A DNA stretch of 64,000 nucleotides from Escherichia coli O127:H6 str. E2348/69 (GTDB taxonomy: Bacteria; Pseudomonadota; Gammaproteobacteria; Enterobacterales; Enterobacteriaceae): the NCBI RefSeq assembly GCF_000026545.1, contig NC_011601.1; one strand, 5' to 3'. A program made the position numbers and the translations under genes. Below, piece after piece: positions 5,731 through 25,847 of this stretch. A model generated the notes under the pieces. That model saw nothing but the letters and a program-made list of their open reading frames with translations. It had not been told where the DNA came from and made no database searches. Within the stretch, counting starts at the first letter, position 1. Each line of letters starts with the position of its first letter.

Positions 5731-6198
5731 AGGCATGGTTATGCCATACAGAAAGCACCAGCATTCAGAACTCCTGTGAAAGCGGCGTAGTGCCACCTGC
5801 TCAGGAGTTTTGCTATGACCCGTAATCGTGCTGACCGTTGCCACCCTATGATGCGATTAAAAAAACTCATCGTCGCGCCGATGATTGACGTCAATGCTAT
5901 CGGATGATGTCAGGGGTGTTCCGGAAGGAATTCCTTGTTTCCCGAACTGTTACCAACAAAATTATAACGATGAGCAAGTTAAGACCGGTTGGTAGCAGTA
6001 CTGACCGGTCTGTGATGGATGATTAATTTCACCTTAAATCCGGGTGCTGTTAGGATGCTGACATTTTTCGGCTACACCATTCAGATTATGCAATTAAAGA
6101 TCCAATCAAAAAATAAACATCCCTGTATATAATATATTCATAGCACCTATAATTCATTTTGGGCGATAACTAAACCATTTTTGAGTAACAAATGAAAC

Positions 6199-8338: not shown

Positions 8339-9237
8339 TTGCGCTCCTCGTCTTTCTCTTCGTGCAGATTATTCTCTTCCTCATCCGCACGGTTCGGACC
8401 GACACCCACGTAGTGGAAGATACTGGCTGCGAAGGTAGCCGCAAAGCCAACAGCTGCGAGCGGTTTCCAGATGCCTTTCCAGAATTTCACGGTTTCGCTG
8501 ATTTCCGGGTTCTCCGGCAAGCCATGATACAGATTTGGCTTGTCAGCATGGTGCAGCACGTACATAACATGTGTACCACCGACGCCTGCCGGGTCGTACA
8601 AACCCGCATTGTCGTAACCACGGGTTTTCAGCTCCGCCACGCGCTCGCTCGCCAGCGTTTTCATCGACTCTTTCGTACCGAAGTGAATCGCGCCCGTTGG
8701 GCAGGTCTTCACGCAGGCCGGTTCTTGCCCAACCACCACGCGGTCAACGCACAGCGTACATTTGTAGACGCGGTTGTCTTCCGGGTTGAGGCGCGGAATG
8801 TCGAACGGACAGCCCGCAATGCAATAACCGCAGCCGATGCACTGCTCGGACTGGAAGTCGACGATACCGTTGGAATACTGAATAATTGCCCCTTCCGCCG
8901 GGCACGCTTTCAGGCAGCCTGGATCGGAACAGTGCATACAGCCGTCTTTGCGGATCAGCCATTCCAGTTTGTCGTTCTGCTCCACTTCCGAGAATCGCAT
9001 CACCGTCCACGATTTGGCACTTAAATCATTGGGGTTGTCGTACACCCCAATGTTATTGCCGACGGTATCGCGAATGTCGTTCCACTCTGAACACGCCACC
9101 TGACAGGCTTTACAGCCGATACAGGTGGTAACGTCGATGAGTTTCGCCACTTCTTCCTGGAAGTCCCGCGCCTGAGGCGCGGGGGTCAGACCGTTAGTCG
9201 CGGAACGACGAATGATATCTTGCGATTGATAAGCCAT
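8335..9237 (-). CDS. fdoH: formate dehydrogenase-O iron-sulfur subunit
   Basis: 300 aa, multiple CxxCxxCxxxCP ferredoxin motifs, C-terminal TM helix. Confidence 0.93.
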
Positions 9238-9249
9238 ATGTCGTCTCCG

Positions 9250-12200
9250 TTACACCTTTTCCACATTCACAAGGAAGGACTTAAACTCCGGCGTCTGCGT
9301 GTTCGCATCACCGACGAATGGCGTCAACGTATTGGCAATAAAGCCTTTTTTCGCAACACCTTCATAGCCCCAGTGAATCGGAATACCGATGGTATCGATA
9401 TCTTTGCCGTTTGCTTTCAGCGTGCGAATACGTTTGGTCACTACCGCTTTGGCTTTGATATAGCCACGGTTGGAGGAGACTTTCACAGTATCGCCCTGGG
9501 CAATGCCAAGTTTATTCGCCAGCGACTCCCCGATTTCCACAAACTGCTCTGGTTGCAAAATCGCATTCAACAGCGCGTGTTTGGTCCAGTAGTGGAAGTG
9601 CTCGGTCAGACGATAGGTGGTTCCGACATACGGGAACTTATCGGCTTTACCCAATGCTTCGGCGTCGTCTTTAAAGATACGCGCAGCCGGGTTCGAGATA
9701 ACGTTTGGATGCAGCGGGTTAGTTCCCAGCGGCGTTTCAAACGGCTCGTAGTGTTCCGGGAACGGACCTTCCGCCATCTTATCGAGGGCAAACAGACGTC
9801 CCATGCCTTCCTGCTGCATGATAAACGGCCCTACGCCGCTGCCCGGAGGCGCTGCGCTGTAGTCCGGAATATCCCAGCCGGTCCACTTAGTGCCGTCCCA
9901 TTTCAGCAACTGACGCTTCGGATCCCATGGGTTACCCTGCGGATCTGCGGAGGCGCGGTTATACAGAATGCGGCGGTTTAGCGGCCATGCCCATGCCCAG
10001 CCCAGCGTGTTACCGAGGCCAGACGGATCGGCGTTATCACGACGCGCCATCTGGTTGCCTTCCGGCGTCCAGCTACCGGCGAAAATCCAGCAGCCACAGG
10101 AGGTTGTACCGTCATCGCGCAGTTGGGCGAACGAGCTAAGTTGTTGGCCTTTCTTGACGATAACCGCACCGGTTGCCGGGTCGGTAATATCGGCCAGCGC
10201 TTTGCCGTTGCTCTCCATTGCCACTTCTTCTGAAGATGGCTCATGCGGAATGGCGTAGTTCCAGGTCATGTTCAGCACCTGGTCCGGGTTCGCGCCACCC
10301 TGTTCGGCATACATCTTGCGCAAGCGCAGGAAGATACCGGAGAGGATCTCGCCATCAGTCAGCGCAATCCCCGGGGCGTCCGCACCTTTCCAGTGCCACT
10401 GTAACCAGCGACCTGAGTTAACGATAGAACCGTTCTCTTCCGCGAAGCAGGTCGATGGTAGACGGAACACTTCGGTCTGGATCTTCGACGAGTCAACTTC
10501 GTTCAGCTCACCGTGGTTCTGCCAGAAGTTAGAGGTTTCAGTGTTCAGCGGGTCGATAGTCACGAGGAATTTCAGCTTCGACAGACAGCCGATCACTTTG
10601 TTTTTGTTCGGGAATGAGGCAACAGGGTTAAAGCCCTGGCAGATATAGCCATTGACCTTGCCTTCTTTCATCATCTCGAAGTATTGCAGGACGTCGTAGC
10701 CTTTATCCCACTTCGGCAACCAGTCAAAGCCCCAGCTATTTTCCGCCGTCGCTTTATCACCAAAGAAGGCCTTCATCATAGAGACGAAGAATTTCGGGTA
10801 GTTGCCCCAGTAGTTTACCTGGCCTTCCAGCAGCGGTTTTGGCGTGTTGGCGGTAAGGTAGGTTTGCAGATCGGTCTGCTTCTCGCTTGGCAGCGTCATG
10901 TAACCTGGCAGGCTCTGCGACAGCAGCCCCAGGTCGGTCAGCCCCTGAATATTGGAGTGACCGCGCAGGGCGTTAACGCCGCCGCCAGCCATCCCCATAT
11001 TGCCGAGCAGCAACTGGATCATCGCCATCGTACGGATGTTCTGCGCACCGATGGAGTGTTGCGTCCAGCCGAGCGCGTAAAGGAACGAGGCAGTTTTATC
11101 GTGAGCACTGGTTTCGGCGATGTATTCGCAGACTTTCAGGAATGCGTCTTTTGGCGTACCACAGATGTTTTCAACCACATCTGGCGTGTAGCGGGAAACG
11201 TGCTGTTTCAGCAAGTTCCACACGCAACGTGGATGTTGCAGGGTAGTATCGCGTTTGGCGAAGCCGTTTTCGTCCAGTTCGTAAGTCCAGGTGGACTTAT
11301 CGTACTTGCGTTTTTCCGCGTCGTAGCCGGTGAACAGGCCATCTTCAAAGCCGTAATCCTCACGCACGATCAGGCTAGCGTTGGTATAGGCTTCGGTGTA
11401 TTCGCGGTTGAATTTTTCATTGTTCAGCAGGTACAGCAATACGCCTGACAGGAAAGCAATGTCAGTACCGGAACGGATAGGGGCATAGTAGTCAGCCACC
11501 GCCGCTGTACGTGTAAAGCGAGGATCGATCACAATCAGCTTCGCGCCGTTGTGAATTTTGGCTTCCATCGCCCAGCGGAACCCGACCGGGTGAGCTTCAG
11601 CGGCGTTACCGCCCATCACCACGACGAGGTTGGCATTCTTGATGTCGACCCAGTGGTTGGTCATCGCACCGCGACCAAATGTTGGAGCAAGACTTGCTAC
11701 CGTTGGTCCGTGTCAGACACGCGCCTGGTTGTCGACCGCGAGCATACCCAGCGCGCGGGAGAATTTTTGCGTTAAATAGCCGGTTTCGTTACTCGACGCG
11801 GAAGCACACAGCATCCCGGTGGAGAGCCAGCGGTTAACAGTCACGCCTTCGGCGTTTTGCGCAATGTAGTTCGCATCGCGGTCTTCTTTCATCAGTTTGG
11901 CGATGCGATCAAACGCCTCTTCCCAACTGATTTGCTGCCATTTATCAGAACCTGGCGCACGGTATTCCGGAAACTTCAGGCGGCTTTCGGAGTGGATGAA
12001 ATCCACCAGGCCAGCGCCTTTCGGACAAAGTGCTCCGCGGTTGACCGGGTGATCCGGGTCACCTTCGATATGGAAGATAGATGCTTTGGCGTTTTTTGCT
12101 CCGTCACCGAGGCTGTACATCAACAGCCCACAGCCTACGGAACAATAGGTGCAGGTATTACGGGTTTCGCGGGTGCGCAGCAGTTTATACTGCCGGGTTT

Positions 12201-12300
12201 CCGCGAGTGCTACGCTGGGTGCAAAACCCAGTGCCGCTGCCGTGGTGCCTGCCATACCGCCAGCGCAGATCTTAAAGAACTGCCTTCTGCTGACCTGCAT
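9250..12300 (-). CDS. fdoG: formate dehydrogenase-O major subunit, selenoprotein (in-frame UGA = Sec at 11713..11715)
   Basis: track ORFs 11713..12300 (195 aa, Tat signal SRRQFFK) and 9250..11664 (804 aa) are in one frame separated only by TGA; joined length is 1016 aa. Confidence 0.92.
11668..11712 (-). other. SECIS-like hairpin immediately 3' of the fdoG UGA
   Basis: mRNA reads UGA-CACGGACCAACGGUAGCAAGUCUUGCUCC..., a stem with an AGUC-type apical loop resembling the fdhF SECIS. Confidence 0.6.
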
Positions 12301-12493
12301 GGATTGCTCCTTGTTTCGACATTGTCACGTCCCATTTACATTCGCTTGCTGCGTGTGCAGGGAGTGGGAGTTATTTTTCTTTGCGGAAGGGGCCGCAAAG
12401 GTCCAGAATTGGCTCAATTTCCCTCCATCCAGGAAGGGTTTGTAACAGAATACCATAATGTTGGTGTGTGTGTTCTTATCTGGTTAATAGAAA

Positions 12494-13330
12494 GTGAAAA
12501 AAACACAGCAAAAAGAAATCGAGAATGTGACAAATATCACAGGTGTTCGTCAAATTGAGTTATGGCGGCGTGATGATTTACAACACCCACGGTTAGATGA
12601 GGTGGCGGAAGAAGTTCCCGTTGCGCTGGTCTACAACGGCATTTCGCATGTGGTGATGATGGCGTCGCCCAAAGACCTTGAGTACTTTGCGCTCGGTTTT
12701 TCGCTTTCCGAAGGAATTATCGAAAGCCCGCGCGATATCTTCGGCATGGATGTCGTTCCTTCCTGTAATGGCCTGGAAGTACAAATTGAGCTTTCCAGCC
12801 GCCGCTTTATGGGGTTGAAGGAACGCCGCCGGGCGCTGGCGGGACGTACGGGCTGTGGCGTATGCGGTGTAGAACAGCTTAACGATATCGGTAAACCGGT
12901 GCAGCCGCTGCCGTTCACCCAGACGTTTGATCTCAACAAACTGGATGATGCATTACGTCATCTCAATGATTTCCAGCCAGTGGGGCAACTGACTGGTTGT
13001 ACTCACGCCGCTGCATGGATGTTGCCATCTGGCGAACTGGTCGGCGGGCATGAAGACGTGGGTCGCCATGTGGCGCTGGACAAACTGTTAGGCCGCCGGT
13101 CACAAGAAGGGGAAAGCTGGCAGCAAGGTGCGGTGCTGGTTTCCAGCCGTGCCAGTTATGAAATGGTGCAAAAGTCGGCGATGTGCGGCGTAGAGATTTT
13201 GTTTGCGGTGTCTGCCGCGACCACACTTGCTGTAGAAGTGGCTGAGCGCTGTAATCTGACGCTGGTGGGCTTTTGTAAACCGGGTCGGGCAACGGTTTAT
13301 ACCCATCCGCAGCGTTTGGTTCATAATTAA
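12494..13330 (+). CDS. fdhD: formate dehydrogenase sulfurtransferase FdhD
   Basis: 278-aa ORF from a GTG start, divergent from fdoG. Confidence 0.9.
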
Positions 13331-13337
13331 AGAAATA

Positions 13338-13373
13338 CCGCAATTCTGATTCTGGATTGCGGTTTTATTTTTC
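13338..13373 (+). terminator. rho-independent terminator after fdhD
   Basis: CCGCAAT...ATTGCGG stem followed by TTTTATTTTTC. Confidence 0.65.
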
Positions 13374-13640
13374 TATTAAATAATCCTCAATATATTATTC
13401 AGCATTTAAATAATAATTTCACCACAATAAATTATCTCGTTAATTCCGGTTTATATCGATATACTCCGGTCGCATTAATCCTTTAAGAATTAATCATTAT
13501 TTATATAAGACATTTTGTTTTAATCATCGCGTCAATAAATAAATGTTTCTGATGAGTGAATGCAAATAACAAACCTTGCACCGGTTGTAAAAACAGCAAT
13601 GTATTTTCAATAGTGGGTGATGGATTATGAGTATTGAAAA
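13374..13640 (+). promoter_or_regulatory. strongly AT-rich leader/promoter region upstream of the Hsp90-paralog cassette
   Basis: GC roughly 25-30 percent by eye; TTGCAC at 13576-13581 as a possible -35; no precise promoter assigned. Confidence 0.3.
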
Positions 13641-15476
13641 ATGAGTACATTACAGTTACCTGGCAGTTCATATTCTACTGAAGTTAATTTAAACGGCTTA
13701 ATTGAGGTGCTCAGTAAGCACCTTTACTCTACCCCCGTGGTCGCCGTGCGCGAGCTGGTGCAGAACGGACACGATGCGATCGTGCGCCGCAGGATTGAGC
13801 AGCCCGATGCGCCAAAGGATAACCAAATTCGTGTGGTGGCAGACGTGGCGAAGTCCACCATCACCATTACCGATACCGGTGCGGGTTTGACAGAAAGCGA
13901 AATTCACGGCTTCCTGGCAACAGTGGGCGTGGGTTATACCCGAATGTTGCGCCAGCAGGATGACAACACCGGTTTAATTGGTATGTTCGGCCTTGGTTTC
14001 TTGTCAGCATTTGTACTTGCAAAAGAGGTCACGGTGTTGACCACATCCTGGCAAACGCCGGATCAGAGCTGGAAATACCACTCTACCGACGGGCAAAAAT
14101 ATACCGTTACGCCGCATCAGTCCTCGGAAACGGGAACGCAGGTGATTCTGACGCTCAAAGAAGAGTACAGCCATCTGGCGAGTAACAATTTGCTGAACCG
14201 CGTTCTTTCCCGCTACTGTGTATTGCTGCACGAACCGGTCTATGTCGGCGATGCCAGCGAGCCGGTAAATAAACTTCAACCACCGTGGCGTGAAGTTGCC
14301 CCCGAAGGCGTAACCATACACCGCGCGCTGGTACAGCGTAAAAATCTCGCCTTTGCCGCCCAGTTTGAATCCTCCTTCGAACCGATTTGCACCATTCCGG
14401 TGGTGCCAGCGGGAATGAGCGACGCGGTTGGGATTTTATGGATTCAGGATGGCGCGACCTACGGCACCAGCGATAACCGCAACCTGTCGTTGTTTTTGCG
14501 CGGCATGTTACTGGATGATGAAGCGCGTGAGTTGTTACCGCCCTGGGCCGGATTTATTGGCGGCGTGATTGAGTCATCGAAACTGACGCCGACGGCGAGC
14601 AGGGAAGATCTCCAGCGGGATGCAACCTGGGTTGCGGTACAGGAGGCGTTAAAAGAGGCGCTGATTTCTGGTTTGTCCGATCTCGCACAAAATCAGCCAG
14701 AAATCTGGCGGCGGGTATTAATGCGCCACAACGAAGCGTTGCTGGGTGCGGCCTTGTGTGATGACCGTCTGTTTGATTTGCTCAAAGATCGCTTGCAGGT
14801 GCCAACGTCAAAAGGGGCGCTGCTGGCGAAGGATTTACGCGTTAATAACAGCATTCATATTCTGTTAAGCCGCGACGGCGGTTTTGAAGAGATGTTGTTC
14901 CATATTCTGCAACGGCCTGTAGCCCGTGGCGATCGCTATGCGGTGGTGCCATTTTTACGCCGTTGGGCGCTGTTATATCACTGCCGGATTGTCGAAGTCG
15001 GTACGCAAACGGGTAATGAGCAGTTGTTCAGCCTGGCAGAATTACCCAAAGAGCAGGTGGCTTATCTGGAAGAGCATCTCTGCGACGGCGAGCAATTAAT
15101 TATCTCACGCTTCGAACCCGCCGTTTTACCGTTAGTGGTTACACCAGACCGCGAAGCAGAATTAAAACAAATTCTCGAACAGGATGACGCAGATAAACGC
15201 ATCAGTACCGCAGCGTTAATGCTGGCGCGGCAATTTACCTCGCAAATCCAAAAATCTAAAACTTCAAGTCTGTATATCAACCTTAATAACCCCTGTGTCA
15301 TGCAACTGGTGACGGCCTTACAACACCATCAACAGCCAGCGGCAGCATTACGGTTATTAAAATCGCTGAAAGTGATTTTGTGCTCCAGCGGTAATAAAGA
15401 ACAGCAGTGGGATTTACACCAGGCACTGGAAGATTTTACTCAGGTTATTCCTGTCTTAATTAATCAAGGAAAATAA
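13641..15476 (+). CDS. divergent Hsp90/HtpG-family paralog (GHKL ATPase with Hsp90 middle domain)
   Basis: 611 aa; N-terminus aligns by eye to HtpG: YSTEV..LYS..VRELVQNGHDA (HtpG FQSEV..LYS..LRELISNASDA), ITDTGAGLTESE (ISDNGVGMTRDE), GLIGMFGLGFLSAF (QLIGQFGVGFYSAF); middle domain LFLRGMLLDDEARELLP...IESSKLTPTASREDLQ (LYVQRVFIMDDAEQFMP...IDSSDLPLNVSREILQ). Confidence 0.8.
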   Translation: MSTLQLPGSSYSTEVNLNGLIEVLSKHLYSTPVVAVRELVQNGHDAIVRRRIEQPDAPKDNQIRVVADVAKSTITITDTGAGLTESEIHGFLATVGVGYTRMLRQQDDNTGLIGMFGLGFLSAFVLAKEVTVLTTSWQTPDQSWKYHSTDGQKYTVTPHQSSETGTQVILTLKEEYSHLASNNLLNRVLSRYCVLLHEPVYVGDASEPVNKLQPPWREVAPEGVTIHRALVQRKNLAFAAQFESSFEPICTIPVVPAGMSDAVGILWIQDGATYGTSDNRNLSLFLRGMLLDDEARELLPPWAGFIGGVIESSKLTPTASREDLQRDATWVAVQEALKEALISGLSDLAQNQPEIWRRVLMRHNEALLGAALCDDRLFDLLKDRLQVPTSKGALLAKDLRVNNSIHILLSRDGGFEEMLFHILQRPVARGDRYAVVPFLRRWALLYHCRIVEVGTQTGNEQLFSLAELPKEQVAYLEEHLCDGEQLIISRFEPAVLPLVVTPDREAELKQILEQDDADKRISTAALMLARQFTSQIQKSKTSSLYINLNNPCVMQLVTALQHHQQPAAALRLLKSLKVILCSSGNKEQQWDLHQALEDFTQVIPVLINQGK

Positions 15477-15477
15477 A

Positions 15478-17784
15478 ATGGATACATGGGAGTGGTACAA
15501 CAAATATAGTCAAGAGTTGCGTGATGCCGGGCAAGAATATATTCCGCAGCTTATTGATGATTTTTCAGAAAGTGTTTTGCACCTACAAATAGAAAAATGT
15601 GATTCGCTATTGCCGGAAATGAAAGCACTGAATCAAGTCGCCAAAAATCCGTGGCTGGAAATATTTATTGGTCACTGGGAAATGCGTCATCGCCTGACTA
15701 ACTATGAAGAAGGTGAAAAGGTGCTGCCAGACGTGGTAGCGCTGTTTGAAAAAGCGCATCGGGAAGAGGCGAAAGATTGCCCGCAATCTATCTGCGTTAC
15801 CCAGGATTTATCAGCCTGCTACGAAAATATTGACGCACCAGGCTGGGCGAATGAACGCATGGCGGTGTGTGAAGAAACCATCGCGCGCATTGATCCGACC
15901 TGGAGCTGTTTTCAGTGTTTGTCCACTGAATATGCCAGCGCACTGATAGATTCCAAAAGAACAGAGGAGGCACTGGCTTATCTGGATCGGCAAATCGACG
16001 CAGTTAAAGCAGCCGGGAAAGATGATATTGATCCATTACTTTATACTCGCGCCGATATTCTGATTGAACTTCAGCGTTATGATGAAGCACGCAAATTGAT
16101 TGATGAGCTGACAGAAGCCAATGATTACTGGGGCCGCGACCGCATTAGTAATCACCTAAAAAAACTGTACATCATGGCGTTATGCGGGCAGGACGAAGAA
16201 GTCTGGGAGGAATTACCGCGTTGGTCCGATCTGACTCCGCATTCATGGGGGTCATGGCTGAAAATCATTACTGTGTTACTTCCCCGTCATCCACAAAGAA
16301 ACAACTGGCAACTGGCGCGCATCATCCAGAAAATGCTGGAGCAACGTTCACAGGCCGGGGCGCATCGAAAAGTGGTTAATCTGGCAAAACTACAAATCAC
16401 CCTGGCGCTGGAGCGTGAATCCGTCTGGGTTGCCAAAATAGCGATGAAACTGGCCCAGCGACACATGCCAAAATTACGCGCGTTACTGGGCGTCGATCGC
16501 GAGTTTCTCGAACTTAGCGAAAAAATCGCCACCAAAGAAGCAGAGTTGCTTGCTCGTCCGGTTGTAGAAGTACCTGAAAATAGCGACGAAGAAACGCAGC
16601 CAGATCCAGAAAAAGACGTCGAAATATTCCGCCGCGCTTATCTGAACACACCAGACGATGCAGAGTTACTGGGCAAACTGGTCAATGCGTTAAATGCCTG
16701 TAATGCGATTAATGAGTCAATTGAACTTCTGCAACGCTATGTTGAAAGCCACCTCCATGAAGATAATGGTCTTTGCTTCGATCTGTTGGATTTATTGCTC
16801 CACCGTGACGATCTGCAAACCATTGAGCACCTGGCGAAGCAGTATGAACAGGCGGGGCTGCTACATATGGCCTTGTGGTTCCGGGCGCGAGTGATCAACC
16901 AACAGGAAGACTGGAGTGAACTGGAGTCGATTGGACAACAGTTGCTGCAAAACGAAAAAGGGCGTGAGTGGGTTGGCGTTTATCGCATGTGCTCCTGGGC
17001 AGCACAAAAACAGGAAGCCTGGGATCGACAGCTGGATTATTTACAACAATTGCAGCAACTGATGATTAGCCGTGAAGAAGATATTCGTAATCTCCAGTGG
17101 GATATCATGGCGACCGCCAGCATCCTGCAACAATGGGATTTGGTTCGTGCTATTGCTGCTGAACTGGAAATCGAACTCACGGAAGGTGAAGGTTTTATTG
17201 ACGAAAAATGGGGGCTGCTAAACATTCGCTTCCGGGAAAATTATGAATACCGCTATTACTATGCTCAACGTATTGGGCCGGTAACCGCAAGGATCATTGA
17301 GCCAACTTACCGGACCGATTATCCGCAACATGTTGATGAGGTTGTGGTATTCGATGCAGAAATGTTGAATACCCGACCAGAGGATGAGGAAGAGCAGAAG
17401 AATTTCACTCCGCTTTATGGGTGCCTGAAAACCATTATCCCGACCGAATACGGCGAGTCCTGGTTCTGCGAAGGTGTCATGCCTGGTGAAGAAGAGTTTA
17501 ATACTTTCCGTGAGGCGCTCCGTGAACGAAACTGGTACTACTGGAGCAACAGTAATGACGACTATACGTTAACGGACAGTCATCAAGGAGAAGGCGCTGA
17601 GCCGCTGTCTGCATTCTATTTTGTTATCAGTGCGCCGCGTTCAGTTTCTAAAGGTGATATCGACAAGACCTTGCACGAATTGACCGCTGACTGGAAACAT
17701 CCGTTGTGCTGGTGGCGTCTTGCCAAAGAAGCCGGGGCGAATGAAGAGAAACATGCTGCTATTGCCGAGAGATATGGAATGTAA
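15478..17784 (+). CDS. 768-aa acidic, predicted all-helical repeat protein of unknown function, coupled to the Hsp90 paralog
   Basis: ATG one nucleotide after the upstream TAA; long uninterrupted ORF; TPR-like amphipathic segments; Trp/Tyr-rich C-terminal region; no catalytic motif I can name. Confidence 0.65.
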   Translation: MDTWEWYNKYSQELRDAGQEYIPQLIDDFSESVLHLQIEKCDSLLPEMKALNQVAKNPWLEIFIGHWEMRHRLTNYEEGEKVLPDVVALFEKAHREEAKDCPQSICVTQDLSACYENIDAPGWANERMAVCEETIARIDPTWSCFQCLSTEYASALIDSKRTEEALAYLDRQIDAVKAAGKDDIDPLLYTRADILIELQRYDEARKLIDELTEANDYWGRDRISNHLKKLYIMALCGQDEEVWEELPRWSDLTPHSWGSWLKIITVLLPRHPQRNNWQLARIIQKMLEQRSQAGAHRKVVNLAKLQITLALERESVWVAKIAMKLAQRHMPKLRALLGVDREFLELSEKIATKEAELLARPVVEVPENSDEETQPDPEKDVEIFRRAYLNTPDDAELLGKLVNALNACNAINESIELLQRYVESHLHEDNGLCFDLLDLLLHRDDLQTIEHLAKQYEQAGLLHMALWFRARVINQQEDWSELESIGQQLLQNEKGREWVGVYRMCSWAAQKQEAWDRQLDYLQQLQQLMISREEDIRNLQWDIMATASILQQWDLVRAIAAELEIELTEGEGFIDEKWGLLNIRFRENYEYRYYYAQRIGPVTARIIEPTYRTDYPQHVDEVVVFDAEMLNTRPEDEEEQKNFTPLYGCLKTIIPTEYGESWFCEGVMPGEEEFNTFREALRERNWYYWSNSNDDYTLTDSHQGEGAEPLSAFYFVISAPRSVSKGDIDKTLHELTADWKHPLCWWRLAKEAGANEEKHAAIAERYGM

Positions 17785-17881
17785 GCGGCACTAACGTTTG
17801 TCCGACTCTGGTGTAGCTGAACGGTGAAATCCCAGGTCGGACAACAAACCGTACTAACGGGGGGCCCAAAAATTGTGTCTC

Positions 17882-19630
17882 TCACCCCTGACGAAGTAAC
17901 GCCATAAACGCTTCATACCCTGTTAACCTGGCAATAGTTTCCGCCGGATGCTGACACAGGACGCTGGCAAGATAGCTGAATATTTTCAACTCGTGACGCG
18001 CATCGGCGGCGGCACAGGCGATCAACACGTGGTTAATGACTTCGTTATTCACCTCGATCGGGTGGGCGAGGGTAATAAAAAATCCACGAAAACGTCGCTC
18101 CTGCTCGCTCCAGCAATGTGGGATGGCGAGGCGATTAACAATCAGGTTTTCACCTTCGCCTTCGCGGGCGATGATGCGTTGTGCTTCATCGGTGGTAATA
18201 TGGTGTTGCGTCACTAATTGCGCACAAATTTGCCGGGTAATATGTTGCCAGCTTTCACCGCGTACATTCGAATAATGAAAACTTCCGGGGGCAGAGAAAA
18301 AACGCTCCGGTTGCTGGCGAATAAATGCCGTCGCCAGAAAATGTTTTATTTGTTCGATACCGGCAGCCGTAATGATATTTTTTACGGTGATGTAATTATT
18401 TACCGCGTCATCCAGTAAATAATGGCTGTTGTTAATGATCAATAACGGCTCAATTTCTTCGCGAATGGCAACAAGTTCGCTTAAGCTACGGGCAATAATC
18501 ACCCGACAATTTAAAACATCGCGCTCAATGGCGAGCTGATTAATAGTGGCAATCGCGTTCTGATCAGAGAGCAAAATGATCGGCTGGCGTTCGTTTTGAT
18601 GCCGTTCCAGCGCACAGGCAAAATACAAACCGATCAGATCGCTGTCGAAAAGGGGAATATCGAGTTGTTCACGCAGTAGCGTAATAAAGTGCAGACTCAT
18701 ATCAAAGGCCGCAGGCCAGGCGGCTTTCAGGTTATTCATGCTGCTTTGGCGGTGCTCACCAATCCACACCGGCGCGGCAAGGCAACGTAATAAATGCCCG
18801 GTAATATTCTCAACCAGCTGCGTATCAATAATATTCAATGACGCGATGCCCGGCACCCTTTGCAGCAACCCCTGCACATTATCGGCAGAAATTACCTGTG
18901 CTTGCTGATGCTGTTTCTCTATCAAACCTGTCAGGGTTCTTACAGCGTTATCACCAAGAAACATGCCGCTTTGTTCAACGATTTGTTTTATCTCGTCACC
19001 GGGATATTGCGGCCACTCATCGGTCAGTTGATTACGCAGGGCGTAAATAGCCAGTATCAGGCTGGAGAGATAATCACCCTGCATAAGCGGCAAGCGGTGT
19101 TGGTTGTCGCAGGCTGTGGATAAATGCTGAAGGTTGTCTCGTGTTACGCCAGCCAGAGGAATTAAAAACGGATCTTTGCGCAGCAAGTTCGCCAGCAAAA
19201 TAACGCGTTTCTCTTCTGTCTCATCAATGAAATGGCCCAAACCGGGGCGACTGGCCAGGCAGCAAGTGCGCTCATAACGTTGCTTTAATCGTGGCAGACG
19301 CTCTGCGACCCACGTTTCTGGCAAATTAAGCGCCGAGGCGAGCTGCGCACGGGGAGTAAAGGTATTCAGTAATAACAACGCCAGCAGCCGATCGTCGTTA
19401 TCGTGCTTTTGCAGCAACTGAAAAAAGCTGCGGCGCTCGAAGATTTCCAGCTGATAGCCCGCACTACCACTGGCAGAAATGCGGGCTTTGCCGTTAAGGG
19501 TAAAGTTGAGATAGTCAATATCACGCAGTATGGTCCTGCCAGAAACGCCAGTCTGTTGCGCCAGCTCACCAGGCGTGCGCGGCTGTTGCTCCAGCAGATC
19601 GACAATCTTTAACTGGCGTTCGTTTAGCAT
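17882..19630 (-). CDS. frvR: frv operon transcriptional regulator
   Basis: 582 aa, N-terminal HTH, K-12 size and order. Confidence 0.9.
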   Translation of the reverse strand: MLNERQLKIVDLLEQQPRTPGELAQQTGVSGRTILRDIDYLNFTLNGKARISASGSAGYQLEIFERRSFFQLLQKHDNDDRLLALLLLNTFTPRAQLASALNLPETWVAERLPRLKQRYERTCCLASRPGLGHFIDETEEKRVILLANLLRKDPFLIPLAGVTRDNLQHLSTACDNQHRLPLMQGDYLSSLILAIYALRNQLTDEWPQYPGDEIKQIVEQSGMFLGDNAVRTLTGLIEKQHQQAQVISADNVQGLLQRVPGIASLNIIDTQLVENITGHLLRCLAAPVWIGEHRQSSMNNLKAAWPAAFDMSLHFITLLREQLDIPLFDSDLIGLYFACALERHQNERQPIILLSDQNAIATINQLAIERDVLNCRVIIARSLSELVAIREEIEPLLIINNSHYLLDDAVNNYITVKNIITAAGIEQIKHFLATAFIRQQPERFFSAPGSFHYSNVRGESWQHITRQICAQLVTQHHITTDEAQRIIAREGEGENLIVNRLAIPHCWSEQERRFRGFFITLAHPIEVNNEVINHVLIACAAADARHELKIFSYLASVLCQHPAETIARLTGYEAFMALLRQG

Positions 19631-20700
19631 TAATCCACCTGACGGAACTGGCTAAACGCGTTGACTTTCTCCGCAGTTAAGGTCGTCAGAAAATCCCGTA
19701 TCAGCATGAGCAGAGCATCGTAATCGGCTTTTGAAATCATGCCGCTGTTAGCGTGCAGATAACGAGTTGGCAGACACAGCGCAACAACCGGACGCCCGCC
19801 GCCCATTACGTTGTAGCGCCCGCCATCCGTCGCACCGGTTTTCATGGTGGAAAATTGCAGCGGTAAATCATTCTGCGTGGCACAGCTTTTTAACGCCACC
19901 ACCAGCTTCTGGTTGGGGAAGTAGCGTTTATCAAACAGCATCAGCCCCGGCCCCTGGCCCAGTTTTAGCGGGTATTTAATGTTATCAATGCCCGGAACAT
20001 CGCCTGCGACGGCGGTATCCAGCACGATCACAACATCCGGTTTAATGTGTTCCGCCGAGGTTTGCGCCCCGCGCAGGCCAACTTCTTCTTCCACACTGCC
20101 AACGCCATACAGCGTAATTTCGGGATTATTCACCGTCTGCAATAGCTCAGCCATCATTGCGCAGCCGATGCGGTTATCCAACGCCTTGCCGACCACTTTA
20201 TCTTCGCCCCAGCAGGCAAAATTGGCTTCCGGGCTAATAAAATTACCAATTTCCACGCCGCATTTTTCCGCTTCTTCGCGGCTGTTCGCGCCAATATCAA
20301 TGAACATCTCATCAAATGACAGCGGTTGTTGCTTTTGCTTTTCGGTTAACGCATGTGGCGCGACGGAACCAATCACACCAAGGATTTTAAATCCCTTGTG
20401 TGTGCGTATGGTTACCCGGTGGTTGAGCATCGACTGATTCCACCAGCCACCAATGGTGGTGAAACGCAGAAAACCGCTCTCGTCGATGTGGGTGACCATA
20501 AAGCCGACTTCATCCATATGCCCGACAACGGCAACTTTTGGACCTTTATTCCCCTTACGGGCAACAAAGCTGCCCAGACCATCAAAGGTGATCTCATTAA
20601 TGCAAGGTTCCAGCGTGTTTATCAGAATGTCGCGAACTTCCTGTTCATCGCCGCTAACGGCGCTGGCTTCGCACAACTGTTGCAGTAACTCAATGTTCAT
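19630..20700 (-). CDS. frvX: M42-family aminopeptidase/cellulase-like protein
   Basis: 356 aa from MNIELLQQL; the track ORF starts two codons upstream. Confidence 0.9.
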   Translation of the reverse strand: MNIELLQQLCEASAVSGDEQEVRDILINTLEPCINEITFDGLGSFVARKGNKGPKVAVVGHMDEVGFMVTHIDESGFLRFTTIGGWWNQSMLNHRVTIRTHKGFKILGVIGSVAPHALTEKQKQQPLSFDEMFIDIGANSREEAEKCGVEIGNFISPEANFACWGEDKVVGKALDNRIGCAMMAELLQTVNNPEITLYGVGSVEEEVGLRGAQTSAEHIKPDVVIVLDTAVAGDVPGIDNIKYPLKLGQGPGLMLFDKRYFPNQKLVVALKSCATQNDLPLQFSTMKTGATDGGRYNVMGGGRPVVALCLPTRYLHANSGMISKADYDALLMLIRDFLTTLTAEKVNAFSQFRQVD

Positions 20701-22141
20701 GGACAAGCTCCTGTTGTGCGGCTTTCGCTTTGCGGCGTAACCACAATCCTTTCAGGACGATAATGAATGAAATGTTCAGCGCCAGACCAATCGCCAGCAC
20801 CAGATAAAACGAACCTACCGGCGACATCAGGCCGATCAGCGGGTCAAAGATACCTAAACCCGGTGCCAGACGTTTGATTCCGAAAGCGATCACCAGCACG
20901 CCGGTAATGCCGCCCGCCAGCGTATTGGCGGTAATCATCGGCAACGGAGCTGCCAGAGCGTAAGGAATAGCTGGTTCGGTTGCGACTGTGGCACCGACCA
21001 CAATGGCACTACTGGCAGCCTCTTTTTCCTGTTGAGTAAACAGTTTGGGCGCAATGAACGTCGCAAGACCCGACGCGACGGGCGGCATCAGCGCGACAAC
21101 GCCGACGATGGCGTACCAGTCATAAATGTGTTTTTCCAGCAGCGAGAAGCAGAAGAACCAGGCAGTTTTGTTGATGGGGCCGCCCATATCGAACGCCAGC
21201 ATCGCACCAACCAGAAACGCCGCCGCAAACTTCATTGACGGAGGAATAGTATTCAGGAAGTGCAGCAGCCCGCCCATGAGGTCGGACATCACCGGCCCGA
21301 TAACGTAGTAAGTGAGCACGCCAAAAACCAGCAGAGTAACGAACGGGATCAGCATTGAACCGAGCAGCGGTTGTAATGCTTTGCCAAGGCGCACTTTGCG
21401 GAACCAGAAGACGAAGTAGCCAATTGCCAGCCCCAGCACCACCGCACCGAGGAAGCCCGCGCCAGACTGGGTGCCGAGCAACGCTTTGTCGTTCGCCAGA
21501 TAGCAAACCAGAAACGCCGGAGCGAAAGCGGGTTTATCGGCAATCGACGAGGCAATATAAGCGCCCATGATGGGGATCATAAAGGTGAAGCCGAGATAAC
21601 CGATGGATTCAACCACCCAGGTAAACGACGGCGCGCCTTTCGACATATCGGTATACGGCAAACCGAACTGCACCAGCATGTTGGCAAGCGCCACCAGAAT
21701 ACCGCCGCCGATGACAAACGGCAGTGCCGCAGAGACGCCCGCCATCAGGTGGCTCATCACGCTGCCGCTTTGTACTTCCTGTTTGCCGAGCTTTACGCCG
21801 CTATCTGCGGCAAAAAGCTGCGAGTTTGTCGGTAATTCACTGAAAATCTGGTCGATATTTTTCAACGCCTGGGAGATGGCAATCTCATAAACCTTCTTCC
21901 CGGCAAACCGCGCGCGATCGTCGCCGCTCAGACCACGCCCGGTGGCGAGAATCACGTAATCGGCAGCGGCAATCTCTTCGCTGGATAAGCGGTTTTCAAC
22001 GCCGCTTGATCCTTGAGTTTCCACTTTAATGGTATAGCCGAGAGAACGGGCTTTCTGTTCCAGGGCTTCCGCCACCATGTAGGTGTGAGCGATCCCGGCA
22101 GGGCAGTTGGTGATCGCGACAATACGTAAGGATGACTCCAT
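20690..22141 (-). CDS. frvB: PTS fructose-like EIIBC component
   Basis: 483 aa, N-terminal IIB Cys motif (NCPAGIAHTYM), polytopic C-terminus. Confidence 0.9.
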   Translation of the reverse strand: MESSLRIVAITNCPAGIAHTYMVAEALEQKARSLGYTIKVETQGSSGVENRLSSEEIAAADYVILATGRGLSGDDRARFAGKKVYEIAISQALKNIDQIFSELPTNSQLFAADSGVKLGKQEVQSGSVMSHLMAGVSAALPFVIGGGILVALANMLVQFGLPYTDMSKGAPSFTWVVESIGYLGFTFMIPIMGAYIASSIADKPAFAPAFLVCYLANDKALLGTQSGAGFLGAVVLGLAIGYFVFWFRKVRLGKALQPLLGSMLIPFVTLLVFGVLTYYVIGPVMSDLMGGLLHFLNTIPPSMKFAAAFLVGAMLAFDMGGPINKTAWFFCFSLLEKHIYDWYAIVGVVALMPPVASGLATFIAPKLFTQQEKEAASSAIVVGATVATEPAIPYALAAPLPMITANTLAGGITGVLVIAFGIKRLAPGLGIFDPLIGLMSPVGSFYLVLAIGLALNISFIIVLKGLWLRRKAKAAQQELVHEH

Positions 22142-22151
22142 CGCTACGTCC

Positions 22152-22598
22152 TTATGAGCTGAGGGTTTGATTTAACAAAGCAAGCACCTGGTCGGCGTCG
22201 CCCTGTCGCAGTTGGTTGATAAAATCCTGGTGGATAATTTTGCGACATAGTGTGCCGATGAGTTTGACCTGATCCTCTTCGCCGCTTTGCGGTACGCCGA
22301 GGCAGATCCAGCAATTGACGTCTTCGCCATCGCTGGCTTGCCAGTCAATGGCTTGTGTTTTACGTGCGAACAGCACGAACGGTTGTTTAACGCAGGCGCT
22401 TTTACCGTGCGGTACGGCGATGCCGGAACCAAAACCGGTGGAGTGCATTTTTTCGCGCAGTAGTAACGTTTGCAGGAATTGGTGTGAGTCGGTGATAAAA
22501 CCGTTTTGTAACGCTATTGTCGCCAGTTGCTTCAGAATGGAATAAGCGCCGTTGCCCTGAATATTCAGGTCAATACAGCTTGCAGTAAGTGCTGCCAT
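22152..22598 (-). CDS. frvA: PTS fructose-like EIIA component
   Basis: 148 aa, PTS IIA fold signature with conserved His. Confidence 0.9.
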   Translation of the reverse strand: MAALTASCIDLNIQGNGAYSILKQLATIALQNGFITDSHQFLQTLLLREKMHSTGFGSGIAVPHGKSACVKQPFVLFARKTQAIDWQASDGEDVNCWICLGVPQSGEEDQVKLIGTLCRKIIHQDFINQLRQGDADQVLALLNQTLSS

Positions 22599-23073
22599 TA
22601 TCAGACTCCATGAAAAATATTTCAGTTAATTGTAATCGCGGGGCGGGTTTGTGATGAGCGCGGATATGTCACGAAGTCGCGACAATATAAAGCAGAGTGA
22701 AAGGTAAAATTTGCGGTACCAGACACATATCAGTAGATAAAATAAACTTTGTGAATAAAGTATTATTATTTAATGATTTTGTGAATGTTTAAATGCCCAG
22801 GATATCTTGCCATAACGTTATTTATATTTGTGGCTTATGAGTCAGCGTGAATTATATCTAATATTTTTTACGATATTTAGTTAAAAACGGCACTATTGTT
22901 ATATTCCTCACATTCCAGGAAATCAGCGGATTTACTCATATTATGCAGCGGGATACTATCCATCGGCCTGCTGAAGTTGGATTAAAAATTCGAAAGTGCA
23001 CACCTTATATTTCTCTATATACGTATTCCTTTTGGAAAGCGTAGGGTCTCCTTTATTTCAGGGAACGTAAATA

Positions 23074-24468: not shown

Positions 24469-24508
24469 TGAAAGGGCGGTGCTGGATATTATCCGGCACC
24501 GCAACTCA

Positions 24509-24823
24509 TTAAGGCAGGTAAAACACTTCTTGCAGTTCGCTACTGACTGGGCTGTTATCCGCATTAGCGGGCATAACGTCGATCATATATTTCCACCAAC
24601 GTTGGCAAACATCTGTACTGGCAACCGCATTCCACCGCTCTTCAGATTCAATCTCTATCGTGGCAAATAGCAGATTACGCGCTTTGTCGAGATAGATGGC
24701 GTAGTTATGCGCACCGTGAGATTTCAGCACTGCTTCCAGTTCCGGCCAGATGGGATTATGCCGACGCTGATACTCTTCGTGGGCGTCGGGGTTTACCTGC
24801 ATGACAAAGGCTTTGCGGATCAT
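24509..24823 (-). CDS. rhaM: L-rhamnose mutarotase
   Basis: 104 aa, [22 protein letters not shown]. Confidence 0.93.
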
Positions 24824-24832
24824 GTTTGCTCC

Positions 24833-25657
24833 TTACAGCGCCAGCGCACTGGCGAGTGGTGTAACGCCGAAACGCTGGCCGAGCGCTATCAACTCTTCAC
24901 GACTGATGGTCTGTTTCATGCCGCCCATCGAATAAACCTTCACTAATACTTGTGCTGATTTTTCTGCGGTGTCGATTAAACCGAATGTTTCATCCAGTGT
25001 CGGACCGCTGCCGAAGACGCCGTGGAAGGGCCACAACACCAGCGAATGTTTTTGCATTTCCTGTGCGGTCGCCTGGCCGATTTCGTCCGTGCCGGGCACC
25101 ATCCACGGCAGAATTCCAACGCCATCCGGGAACACTACCAGACACTCGGTGCTGCCTTCCCAAAGCTGGCGAGTGAAGACCGCGGTGTCGTTTTCCAGTA
25201 CGTAGGTAAGGGCGATCAGGTTGGTGGCATGGCAGTGCATGATCACCCGATCTTTACCGTTGGTGGCTTTAATGCGCTCGCAATGAGAGAGAAAGTGAGC
25301 CGGAAGTTCGGATGTCGGGACGGCTTCGTTGGTTAACCCCCAGAGAATATGGTAGCCCGCGCCGTCGCTGTCGACTTTTACGACGCCTAAGTTAGCCGCA
25401 GGATCAAGCTGGACGTTACGGAAGAATTTGCCGGAGCCGGTGACAATAAACGGTGTATTTGCCAGTAAAGGCATGGGCTGGCTGAGCGGGATATAGCGCG
25501 GTTGTGCATGAAAGTTGCCGTGATAAGGCGCGATATCGGCGTCATCCAGGCGCAGCGTCAGGTTACCACCATTGCGCTCGTCCCAGCCTTTCAGCCAGGC
25601 ATCGGTGGTGGCTTTGATCATTCCCTGGACAAACCAGGACTGGGTTATGTTTTGCAT
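24833..25657 (-). CDS. rhaD: rhamnulose-1-phosphate aldolase
   Basis: 274 aa. Confidence 0.93.
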
Positions 25658-25699
25658 GTTCTGTGTTCCTGTTAATTGGACGTCCGTGCCTGTTGCCGG

Positions 25700-25845: not shown

Positions 25846-25847
25846 GT

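Follow-up and report, generated by a model that had tools for sequence, protein, structure and literature searches.

A conserved AT-rich leader ahead of an Hsp90-family/TPR operon in the fdhD 3′ end of Escherichia coli E2348/69

The 310-bp spacer between the fdhD stop codon and the ATG of the next gene, ORF1 (positions 13331-13640), in E. coli E2348/69 probably acts in cis, in our view, as the front end of a long-established accessory operon, which encodes an Hsp90-family ATPase and a TPR protein and lies in the 3′ end of fdhD. All positions refer to the window, the whole analyzed stretch of 64,000 nucleotides. The AT-rich part of the spacer (13374-13640), here called the leader, had been read in the initial annotation as horizontally acquired and H-NS-silenced DNA in front of a gene cassette.

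It is convenient to begin with base composition. Sliding-window GC calculation agrees with the initial annotation that this stretch is far more AT-rich than its surroundings: the leader has 27.3% GC versus 51.4% for the whole window of E2348/69. This is the minimum of the 64 kb; a GC content of 27.3% or less occurs in merely 0.05% of its 267-bp windows, and the AT content of 72.7% across 267 bp stands far over the genome average for a length of at least 200 bp. The whole spacer from fdhD stop to ORF1 ATG has 28.4% GC. Of the window's annotated intergenic regions with a length of 50 bp or more, 39 in all, it is the lowest, the runner-up having 34.9% and the set a mean of 44.5% and a median of 43.6%, so its GC content is not typical of E. 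coli intergenic DNA. A chance low-GC fluctuation is ruled out because the leader is an extreme outlier in the window. TpA steps in the AT-rich spacer number 32 against 11.5 expected, a ~2.8-fold enrichment. The finer texture described earlier stands only in part. Homopolymeric A/T tracts are present, but merely as five runs of 4-5 nt each, and the repeats resembling TAAATAAT are loose, with 73% identity in the direct repeat of 33 nt at 13381/13476.

Where does homology to cassette-free alleles end? The left junction is at 13318/13319, within the final fdhD codons: in every non-carrier genome listed, the megablast match to 12900-13420 went no further than query position 419, which is window 13318. 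When the region was aligned with K-12 and UTI89, it emerged that the last four fdhD codons (13319-13330, plus strand, GTT CAT AAT TAA, giving ...QRLVHN*) are specific to the cassette allele. The FdhD protein of carriers is 278 aa long, that of non-carriers 277 aa. Junction mapping thus confirms that the AT-rich stretch is not ordinary conserved fdhD-downstream DNA. As ordinary downstream DNA, or as a chance product of low GC, the leader is hardly credible: the K-12 fdhD-yiiG spacer without the cassette is indeed also very AT-rich (23.7% GC, more so than the leader), but the leader sequence is unrelated to it, is missing from 5172 of 5426 genomes, and forms the composition extreme of the window.

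Between the junction and the leader, a terminator scan found a rho-independent terminator on the plus strand (13337-13373). It consists of a hairpin at 13337-13363, with a 10-bp stem ACCGCAATTC/GGATTGCGGT and a 7-nt loop, and of a T-run, TTTATTTTTC, that extends to 13373 (TTTATTTTT). The RNA fold has a centroid hairpin of −14.3 kcal/mol and z = −3.79 for a 56-nt segment, so the stem-loop with its U-run is more stable than expected by chance. Across five Escherichia species the stems are invariant and substitutions are restricted to the loop. The fdhD terminator noticed earlier ahead of the AT-rich region is therefore real, strong, and intrinsic. Because the left junction falls inside the last fdhD codons, however, it is cassette-borne and part of the cassette-specific DNA; the K-12 fdhD terminator is a different hairpin. 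Together with the fdhD tail (13319-13373), this terminator would insulate the operon against read-through from fdhD.

The leader was found in exactly 254 of 5426 complete E. coli genomes (4.7%, the EPEC reference strain among them), and these are the same 254 genomes that carry the Hsp90-family ATPase and TPR pair. Leader and cassette are present in one copy each per carrier and are always chromosomal; a distant-mode search gave the same counts. The same locus with the same leader occurs in E. fergusonii, E. ruysiae, E. whittamii, and one cryptic clade. The order fdhD-cassette-yiiG is common to E. fergusonii, E. ruysiae, E. whittamii, and Superficieibacter, and the Salmonella cassette occupies an fdhD-yiiG-like interval at the same locus. 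Within Escherichia, four species besides E. coli have the cassette at this fdhD-yiiG position. The ORF1-ORF2 pair is kept in 20 loci from several phyla, and the GC content of the cassette homologues follows that of the host, from 38% to 71%. Searches of plasmids and phages for mobile-element carriage returned solely one chromosomal contig of Salmonella, together with replicons of Xanthomonas and Pseudomonas in which the neighbouring genes are like those of a chromosome. No integrase or IS is annotated within 7 kb upstream or 7 kb downstream of the leader or elsewhere in the window, no integrase or recombinase is annotated in the related Escherichia loci examined, and a tRNA/tmRNA scan of 9000-26000 was negative. 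Annotation and tRNA scan thus support the earlier remark that neither boundary has an integrase, IS, or tRNA. The idea of recent acquisition is not supported: GC content of the cassette genes is host-like (ORF1 51.2%, ORF2 47.9%, window 51.4%), synteny extends across genera, and the cassette-free K-12 spacer is still more AT-rich. The genes look neither compositionally foreign nor recently acquired, the four-fold divergence of the ORFs resembling that of core fdhD. The low GC content of the leader is no evidence for its foreign origin.

The right side of the cassette tells more about its history. Most carriers retain yiiG and have, after ORF2, a decayed second fdhD 3′ end that makes a direct repeat; E2348/69 has neither of the two any longer. 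The arrangement ORF2-spacer-yiiG was detected in at least 245 of the 254 carriers, so the cassette does not in general replace yiiG, as had been supposed. In E2348/69 a spacer of 97 bp (17785-17881) separates ORF2 from the frvR stop; it is specific to a yiiG-less variant and was found in only 6 of 5426 genomes. It takes the place of ~1.36 kb in the other carriers, comprising the fdhD-end remnant, a K-12-type terminator, and yiiG, and homology with K-12 restarts at the frvR stop, 17882. By these alignments, E2348/69 is a secondary yiiG-deletion variant. The fdhD-end duplicate of the at least 245 other carriers is degenerate, with 26-34 bp at ~60-70% identity; its local alignments gave P = 0.0015-0.03 in four of six alleles and 0.07 in another, while the remaining allele had no such alignment. 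In thousands of non-carriers, BLAST matches to the spacer after ORF2 start within fdhD. The absence of a direct repeat at the edges, reported earlier, is thus correct for E2348/69, where no flanking repeat was found, but not for the sister alleles with their degenerate fdhD-end repeat.

This arrangement suggests that the cassette entered the 3′ end of fdhD long ago, with duplication of about 26-34 bp of fdhD. The insertion is probably older than the Escherichia radiation, with later loss from most E. coli and no recent import. The question of acquisition raised earlier would then have an answer, namely an insert in the fdhD 3′ end with its own gene tail and terminator. Genomic islets at gene 3′ ends with att-type repeats are similar in two respects: the insert begins in the last fdhD codons and supplies tail and terminator, and most carriers show the displaced fdhD end duplicate and the original terminator after the cassette. 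The cassette differs from them in having no integrase, excisionase, or tRNA and in being a unit of just 4.5 kb with two cargo genes, and its right repeat is heavily decayed (~60-70%) and entirely missing in E2348/69.

ORF1 (13641-15476, plus strand, 611 aa) is the gene that the leader would control. It encodes an HSP90-family paralogue with a GHKL ATPase and a middle domain (Pfam HATPase_c_3, HSP90), which scores 288 bits against NCBIfam NF010683 "HSP90 family protein", under the cutoff of 455, and has structure matches to TRAP1 and HtpG at E ~1e-30. ORF2 (15478-17784, plus strand, 768 aa) starts 1 nt past the ORF1 stop and encodes a TPR-containing protein (Pfam TPR_19) without a sequence relative in PDB; it is always found paired with ORF1. 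Homologues of both genes in the same order form the Hsp90-paralogue/TPR pair of Pseudomonas, which in P. aeruginosa we take to be PA1068/PA1069 in PAO1 numbering. Next to the Pseudomonas pair lies a gene for a LysR-type regulator, and an AT-rich leader of this kind is absent there; the Escherichia cassette has no adjacent regulator gene. A known anti-phage defence system was considered and rejected, there being no PADLOC match over most of the protein: the sole match of ORF1 was a weak one, in the ATPase domain, to TmtA (E = 5e-6, 110 of 1302 positions), and ORF2 gave none. The proteins are not listed in the DefensePredictor paper and its supplements, and literature searches on the cassette proteins, Hsp90xo, yiiG/fdhD, and yiiG/E2348 H-NS found nothing relevant. 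Codon positions 1 and 2 of ORF1 and ORF2 diverge by 1.4-3.9% and position 3 by 15-22%. Both ORFs are under purifying selection and so must be expressed at least sometimes; they cannot be permanently silent.

How much distinction has accumulated in the leader itself? Its mean divergence between alleles is 3.3%, while four-fold sites diverge by 20% in fdhD, 19% in ORF1, and 26% in ORF2. Two local controls were compared: the fdnG-fdhD promoter spacer with 1.3% divergence and the ORF2-yiiG spacer, equally AT-rich (30-32% GC), with 32%. The latter value rules out the explanation that AT-rich DNA simply mutates slowly. Purifying selection on the leader is genus-wide and, as judged from these comparisons, as strong as that on a core-gene promoter region. 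Since the leader is conserved while an equally AT-rich spacer diverges, it is probably a functional regulatory region. The same contrast bears on a further reading, in which the leader would be a non-functional relic, the decayed attL-like arm of a former element that lost its integrase, AT-rich as att arms are. The position of the cassette in a gene 3′ end with a substitute end, and the decayed ~26-34 bp fdhD duplicate in most carriers, fit such a relic, but neither the window nor the Escherichia loci that were examined contain an integrase, and functionless DNA would be expected to diverge like the ORF2-yiiG spacer (32%) and not by only 3.3%. We consider this reading very improbable and return to a functional leader.

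Conservation is not uniform along the plus strand. The distal AT-rich block (13374-13450) is the least conserved, with 6.1% mean pairwise divergence. The most conserved block, a candidate core promoter/operator (13451-13550), diverges by 1.7%, which equals codon positions 1 and 2 of fdhD and ORF1; only 6 of its 100 columns vary among seven alleles of five species. The proximal leader (13576-13640), with the 5′ UTR end and the ribosome-binding region, is the sole part alignable with the Salmonella copy, and the blastn match of Salmonella Infantis begins at query position 260, window 13578. Comparison of the distal leader with upstream regions of Salmonella and Superficieibacter revealed no significant homology (P = 0.11, 0.81, and 0.87), so its support is limited to conservation at the level of Escherichia. 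A 33-nt block around a palindrome in the leader, chosen post hoc, was marginal against the same upstream regions (P = 0.009). A small-protein reading of the leader was rejected, because the only ORFs of at least 20 aa, one on the plus strand (24 aa) and two on the minus strand (28 and 56 aa), are interrupted in other species by 1-nt indels, as is every ORF in 13550-13615. No ORF of at least 20 aa lies within 13374-13500, and a mini-ORF at 13551 was rejected as not conserved.

It is tempting to explain such a leader by xenogeneic silencing, in which H-NS or StpA would polymerise from a nucleation site on recently acquired AT-rich DNA and keep the cassette silent. Some ~270 bp at 72% AT, the lowest of 39 spacers, and TpA steps enriched ~2.8-fold agree with this explanation, as do weak promoter-like sites on both strands, usual in AT-rich DNA, and the presence of the cassette in just 4.7% of E. 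coli genomes. Four matches to TCGATAAATT at 2 mismatches lie in 155 bp (13387-13541) versus ~1 per 760 bp window-wide, an enrichment that largely follows base composition. The best of these TCGATAAATT- or TCGATATATT-type matches is TCGATATACT, which by eye agrees with the TCGATATATT variant at 9 of 10 positions. However, GC content of the ORFs is host-like (51% and 48%), the same locus and leader recur across Escherichia, with synteny to Superficieibacter and the same locus in Salmonella, and the cassette-free K-12 spacer is more AT-rich (23.7% GC). In addition, both ORFs are under purifying selection, and the per-position conservation of the leader exceeds what AT-driven H-NS binding needs, the neighbouring AT-rich spacer having diverged. 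We regard this explanation as unlikely; a silenced cassette, as first proposed, cannot be the whole story when the leader and both ORFs are under purifying selection. AT content, TpA density, and TCGATATACT make H-NS binding alone, without recent import, plausible, and we give it about an even chance. H-NS-bound accessory promoters such as those of proU, bgl, and pathogenicity islands likewise have high AT and TpA over more than 200 bp upstream, a near-consensus motif of the nucleation type (here TCGATATACT), and only weak promoter-like hexamers on both strands. The present case differs from them in four ways: the genes that follow lack a high AT content, the locus is old with synteny across genera, the leader is conserved at the level of single bases, and the allele without the cassette is still more AT-rich.

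What elements could make the leader a regulatory region? No strong sigma-70 consensus was detected in it, and a simple promoter scan gave no plus-strand site. The only conserved −10-like hexamer is TATACT (13460-13465), which lies at a 17-nt spacer from TCGTTA (13437-13442) and scores 8.4 bits with the position weight matrix (PWM). The top plus-strand sigma-70 PWM site, with 10.2 bits, is specific to E2348 and ranks only near the 90th percentile when compared with random 330-bp blocks (background median 7.1 bits, 90th percentile 10.3). A −10-like TAAATT (13428-13433) accompanied by TTTAAA at 13405 is E2348/69-specific, other alleles having GAAATT, a G-to-T difference at 13428. From the conserved hexamer, transcription may start near 13472. 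An inverted-repeat search found a 24-bp palindrome, CCGGTTTATATC/GATATACTCCGG (13446-13469, P ~0.1), whose core TTATATCGATATACTCC is invariant across alleles and which includes both the H-NS-nucleation-like TCGATATACT (13456-13465) and the TATACT hexamer. Just 3′ of the putative start lies a nearly invariant 21-bp palindrome, ATTAATCCTT-T-AAGAATTAAT (13474-13494, P ~0.1), a candidate operator; taken singly, neither palindrome is significant. The motif WTTAATC, picked post hoc, occurs at 13474, 13489, and 13519, three times against 0.27 expected (P = 0.005). A sigma-32 or sigma-54 promoter near TTGCAC (13576-13581) was rejected, since by eye it has no acceptable −10/−24 and it is not conserved in Salmonella. 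Inspection of the leader for Fur, IHF, TyrR, and CpxR boxes gave no convincing match.

The two palindromes, the WTTAATC triplet, and TATACT would together form an AT-rich promoter/operator core (13446-13550). A DNA-binding repressor, a nucleoid protein such as H-NS or StpA, or both probably exert control there, and expression of the operon would then be low but inducible. A literature search found no transcription-start, ChIP, or expression data on the leader or the operon.

The predicted transcript would have a ~170-nt unstructured AT-rich 5′ UTR ending in a small hairpin that offers a Shine-Dalgarno (SD) sequence, GGTGA, together with a short upstream ORF (uORF). The predicted hairpin (13604-13640, plus strand) has arms TTTTCAATA (13604-13612) and TATTGAAAA (13632-13640), complementary at 9 of 9 positions, and a 19-nt loop containing the SD-like GGTGA (13616-13620) and the uORF AUG; its 3′ arm adjoins the ORF1 AUG. 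The fold has −7.1 kcal/mol in E. coli and −9.0 kcal/mol in Salmonella. In six sequences from three genera, 96.3% of cells are paired, versus 44-64% when the arms are slid. Covariation amounts to a single pair (UA/CG/UG), with a non-significant shuffle control.

The uORF ATGAGTATTGAAAAATGA (MSIEK*, 13627-13644, plus strand) has five codons. GGTGA lies 6 nt ahead of its AUG at 13627, and its UGA overlaps the ORF1 AUG at 13641 (ATGA), ORF1 itself having no good SD. Salmonella has the same layout with MSVEK*, and in Superficieibacter the uORF is in frame with ORF1. The uORF appears to be a relic of the ancestral N-terminus, which a 1-nt deletion in an A-run parted from ORF1. Its own SD, overlapping stop, and conservation in relatives are the features predicted of a coupled uORF, and because UGA overlaps the ORF1 AUG, ORF1 is probably translated by termination-reinitiation coupling. 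Known AUGA-overlap coupling likewise joins a short ORF with a good SD to the following AUG through an overlapping UGA, here kept in Salmonella; the difference is that the predicted uORF is the leftover of a former N-terminus.

Does the leader then act at the RNA level, as an sRNA from either strand or as a cis element of the 5′ UTR, for example a thermosensor? Strong conservation without coding potential would suit this possibility, and so would a hairpin of the ribosome-binding region kept in three genera with a UA/UG/CG series, its A-U-rich stem being of marginal stability (−7 to −9 kcal/mol). Against it, Rfam at E ≤1 gave chance-level matches only, and folds of 13440-13660 on the plus strand, of 13364-13640 on the minus strand, and of 13576-13700 were no better than shuffles (z = +0.84, −0.46, and +0.36, respectively). 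No promoter and terminator pair bounds an sRNA, and in P. aeruginosa the orthologue partner PA1069 falls and does not rise on heat shock (PMC4957987). With the SD exposed in the loop and not sequestered, a classical thermometer does not fit, and shuffle-like z-scores and the lack of an Rfam match speak equally against a thermometer or riboswitch. We find an RNA-level regulator distinctly unlikely and keep to the leader as a front end with a probably coupled uORF.

A more specific but rather unlikely proposal is that the leader is a dedicated genus-conserved module of RBS hairpin, relic uORF, and palindromes as operators for a trans-acting regulator. It would hold the Hsp90-paralogue/TPR pair under tight repression and release it upon a particular signal, and leader and genes together would be an ancient integrase-less islet with its own fdhD 3′ end and terminator. 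If true, the leader, as regulator bait or signal reporter, would be an experimental handle for learning what this widespread gene pair does. The core at 13451-13550 and the uORF/hairpin region are defined targets for asking how and when the Hsp90-family/TPR operon turns on. These results also correct the tempting but weak inference that AT-rich DNA is foreign and silenced, since this leader is the best-conserved part of the insert. The operon it precedes is an uncharacterised Hsp90-family/TPR operon that roughly 5% of E. coli carry, among them the reference strain of EPEC.

The leader (13374-13640) lies within the 310-bp spacer (13331-13640) that separates fdhD (12494-13330) from ORF1 (13641-15476), which is followed by ORF2 (15478-17784). 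On the minus strand, fdoGHI-fdhE are located upstream of fdhD and frvRXBA downstream of ORF2. The initial annotation rightly described the leader as exceptionally AT-rich: sliding-window calculation gave 27.3% GC versus 51.4% for the whole window, the deepest minimum in 64 kb, and only 0.05% of 267-bp windows are equally low. Among the 39 intergenic regions that measure 50 bp or more in the RefSeq gene table of the window (mean 44.5% GC), the fdhD-ORF1 spacer ranks lowest with 28.4% GC, and the next lowest has 34.9%. The latter spacer (22599-23073; 267-bp minimum 29.6%) separates the divergent frvA and porin genes. TpA steps in the leader spacer are about 2.8-fold enriched, and A/T homopolymers are short (five runs, 4-5 nt each). 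As also noticed earlier, mobility genes are lacking: no integrase or IS is annotated anywhere in the 64-kb window, and a tRNA scan over 9-26 kb found none. The E. coli E2348/69 chromosome NZ_CP059840.2 is 100% identical to the window.

Of 5426 complete E. coli genomes, 254 contain the leader, always as a single chromosomal copy, and the same number carry ORF1 and ORF2; a more sensitive search for additional leader copies gave none. All non-carriers listed lose homology to the window after 13318, so the leader is not ordinary conserved DNA downstream of fdhD. The final four codons of fdhD here are GTT CAT AAT TAA, versus AGC AAT TAA in the alignment of K-12 (C600) and UTI89, and the hairpin terminator after fdhD is also unlike theirs. 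The terminator ascribed to fdhD is therefore cassette DNA. It is a strong one, in which a 10-bp stem closes a 7-nt loop and a T-run follows (fold z = -3.8 for a 56-nt segment), with variation restricted to the loop across five Escherichia species. Thus, the left junction of the cassette is inside fdhD, and the leader is part of the cassette. On the right side, K-12 homology restarts at 17882, precisely where the stop codon of frvR lies.

The cassette had been thought to replace yiiG, but other carriers keep this gene after ORF2. The order fdhD-ORF1-ORF2-yiiG-frvR occurs in WP5-S18-ESBL-09, 2014C-3075 and Escherichia sp. MOD1-EC7003, and fdhD-cassette-yiiG, seen up to yiiG, in E. whittamii, E. 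ruysiae and one E. fergusonii-protein locus (L029); at a second such locus, the genome-derived L028, no gene was called after ORF2. Queries spanning ORF2, spacer and yiiG from two haplotypes were at least 80% covered in 236 and 245 genomes, and the 97-bp spacer 3′ of ORF2 in E2348/69 is found in only 6. E2348/69 is therefore a secondary yiiG-deletion variant, and the cassette is an insertion rather than a yiiG replacement. The six genomes are three O127:H6 strains and three soil or water isolates; their spacer (17785-17881) contains a 7+4-bp interrupted inverted repeat, GTCCGAC..CTGG / CCAG..GTCGGAC. In the carrier 2017-02-2CC, ORF2 likewise directly adjoins frvR. Between frvA and rhaM is a gene for a 464-aa RafY-like glycoporin (23074-24468, plus strand; Pfam Porin_8, E = 1e-155). 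UTI89 shares this gene, lacks the entire frv operon and carries a truncated and frameshifted yiiG; these differences from E2348/69 make the fdhD-rhaM interval a multi-state variable region.

No direct repeat had been seen at the edges; an imperfect one appears in the yiiG-retaining alleles. There, a decayed duplicate of the final 26-34 bp of fdhD, K-12-type tail included, lies downstream of ORF2 and ahead of the K-12-type terminator, so that the cassette is bracketed by the fdhD 3′ end. Six alleles were examined by local alignment of this duplicate: four gave P = 0.0015-0.03, one gave 0.07 and one showed no signal. By BLAST, K-12 homology reaches 21-33 bp into fdhD in these alleles, and in thousands of non-carriers the post-ORF2 spacer begins to match within the annotated fdhD gene. 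The repeat probably records an old event in which a unit carrying its own replacement gene end inserted into the fdhD 3′ end; the left copy stays intact via selection on FdhD. No recombinase remains with the cassette. In Superficieibacter sp. 1612_C1 (locus L010, about 10139-10175), the sequence right after the ORF2 stop weakly resembles its own fdhD 3′ end (P = 0.08); if real, the duplication predates the Escherichia-Superficieibacter split.

How old is the cassette? The leader had been read as a mark of recently acquired foreign DNA, which host-like ORF composition, synteny across genera and the spacer of K-12 all contradict. ORF1 has 51.2% GC and ORF2 47.9%; the pair ranges from Wohlfahrtiimonas (38% GC) to Myxococcota (71% GC), and ORF GC follows that of the host. 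Superficieibacter has the cassette after fdhD, in one genome with yiiG downstream as well, and Salmonella Infantis has it in the equivalent fdhD-yiiG-like interval with three extra small genes between. Among Escherichia alleles, divergence at four-fold sites is 19% for ORF1 and 26% for ORF2, similar to core fdhD (20%). The cassette-free K-12 fdhD-yiiG spacer has 23.7% GC, below the leader, and in other enterics non-homologous spacers upstream of the homologues are AT-rich too (about 33-44% GC). AT-richness is a trait of promoter-bearing spacers at the fdhD locus and no marker of foreign origin, and the cassette is old. ORF2 alleles, compared with homologous loci L005-L030, show unusual divergence and mosaicism (3.9% at codon positions 1+2 versus 1.4% in ORF1); between E2348/69 and WP5-S18, four-fold divergence is 1.4% in fdhD versus 24% in ORF2, indicating recombination breakpoints within the cassette. 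The Salmonella Infantis SARB27 leader includes, at 5822-5950 of locus L004, a 129-bp dispersed repeat of the intergenic type that looks ERIC/IRU-like and of which E. coli genomes have a median of 11 copies; without it this leader has 33.5% GC.

Eight leader alleles were compared (three E. coli, a cryptic clade, E. whittamii, two E. fergusonii and E. ruysiae). Mean divergence of the 310-bp spacer is 3.3% versus about 20% at flanking four-fold sites. Divergence is 1.3% for the spacer with the divergent fdnG-fdhD promoters (46% GC) and 32% for the ORF2-yiiG spacer, which is equally AT-rich (30-32% GC), so low GC does not explain the conservation. The leader is thus under strong purifying selection and behaves like a working promoter region. 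Mean pairwise divergence is 6.1% in the distal block (13374-13450), 1.7% in the central block (13451-13550), matching codon positions 1+2 of fdhD and ORF1 (1.4-1.9%), and 2.0% in the block of hairpin, SD and uORF (13604-13640). A conserved peptide is excluded, as ORFs are absent and some species have 1-nt indels; leader folding energies on both strands were no better than those of shuffles, and an Rfam search of the leader gave no match. Conservation therefore most likely reflects protein binding at the DNA level.

The conserved core contains palindromes of 24 bp (CCGGTTTATATC/GATATACTCCGG, 13446-13469) and 21 bp (ATTAATCCTTTAAGAATTAAT, 13474-13494), each modest alone (P about 0.1), and three copies of WTTAATC (P = 0.005 for a motif chosen post hoc). 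The only conserved -10-like hexamer, TATACT, lies in the 24-bp palindrome with TCGTTA 17 bp upstream (8.4 bits). The best-scoring promoter-like site, TTTAAA-17-TAAATT (10.2 bits), relies on T at 13428, a position occupied by G in the other six alleles of the alignment (GAAATT to TAAATT); this T may be a strain-specific promoter-up mutation. No candidate rises above background (90th percentile 10.3 bits), so the promoter assignment is inferred. The 24-bp palindrome also includes TCGATATACT, near the published H-NS nucleation motifs, with the consensus as reported by Lang et al. (2007) and by Bouffartigues et al. (2007). AT content, TpA density and this motif make H-NS/StpA binding plausible, with chances roughly balanced. 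Of the proposed H-NS silencing of acquired DNA, probable binding by nucleoid proteins survives and recent foreign origin does not; purifying selection on both ORFs makes permanent silencing unlikely. A literature search for H-NS/StpA occupancy or expression at the leader found none.

The Salmonella copy is alignable with the leader only over 13576-13640. Here, a predicted 9-bp A-U-rich hairpin (13604-13612 paired with 13632-13640) holds in its loop GGTGA and the AUG at 13627 of a five-codon ORF, MSIEK*, whose UGA overlaps the ORF1 AUG. In six sequences that represent three genera, 96% of pair cells stay paired versus 44-64% in slid controls, and one pair varies U-A, U-G, C-G; the shuffle control, with so few sequences, was not significant. 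The upstream AUG of Superficieibacter shares the reading frame of ORF1 (MGVEEMRALQ), which makes the Escherichia/Salmonella uORF a relic of the ancestral N-terminus that would have arisen when an A-run lost 1 nt. Lacking a good SD of its own, ORF1 is most likely translated through termination-reinitiation coupling with the uORF. Far less probable is translation by a -1 slip on the A-run; at 13636-13644, A5 followed by UGA (GAA AAA UGA) would permit a tRNA-Lys slip into the ORF1 frame, and the predicted product, MSIEK-MSTLQ..., resembles the in-frame Superficieibacter N-terminus.

ORF1 encodes a full-length HSP90-family paralogue (Pfam HATPase_c_3 and HSP90; NCBIfam "HSP90 family protein", below its cutoff; structure matches to TRAP1 and HtpG at 1e-30). 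ORF2 is a TPR protein for which no solved-structure relative was found; PADLOC gave no defence-system match for the cassette beyond the ATPase fold. The P. aeruginosa homologues, presumably PA1068 and PA1069, adjoin a LysR regulator and bra/liv genes. PA1069 drops about four-fold upon heat shock (PMC4957987). The "plasmid" copies of the pair, on Xanthomonas vasicola pXVH29 (L033) and P. aeruginosa p2014S05-249-1 (L034), are embedded in housekeeping-type genes (radA, liv/bra transporter genes, LysR regulator); unlike in Escherichia, a transcription-factor gene lies immediately upstream of both.

The region consists of a cassette-borne terminator, a conserved AT-rich putative promoter/operator region and a 5′ UTR that retains a relic uORF, all as part of an ancient insertion in the fdhD 3′ end; the initial annotation was right in its observation of the leader and only in part in its interpretation. 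Elements of this kind are familiar, and this one is a new, previously undescribed case.
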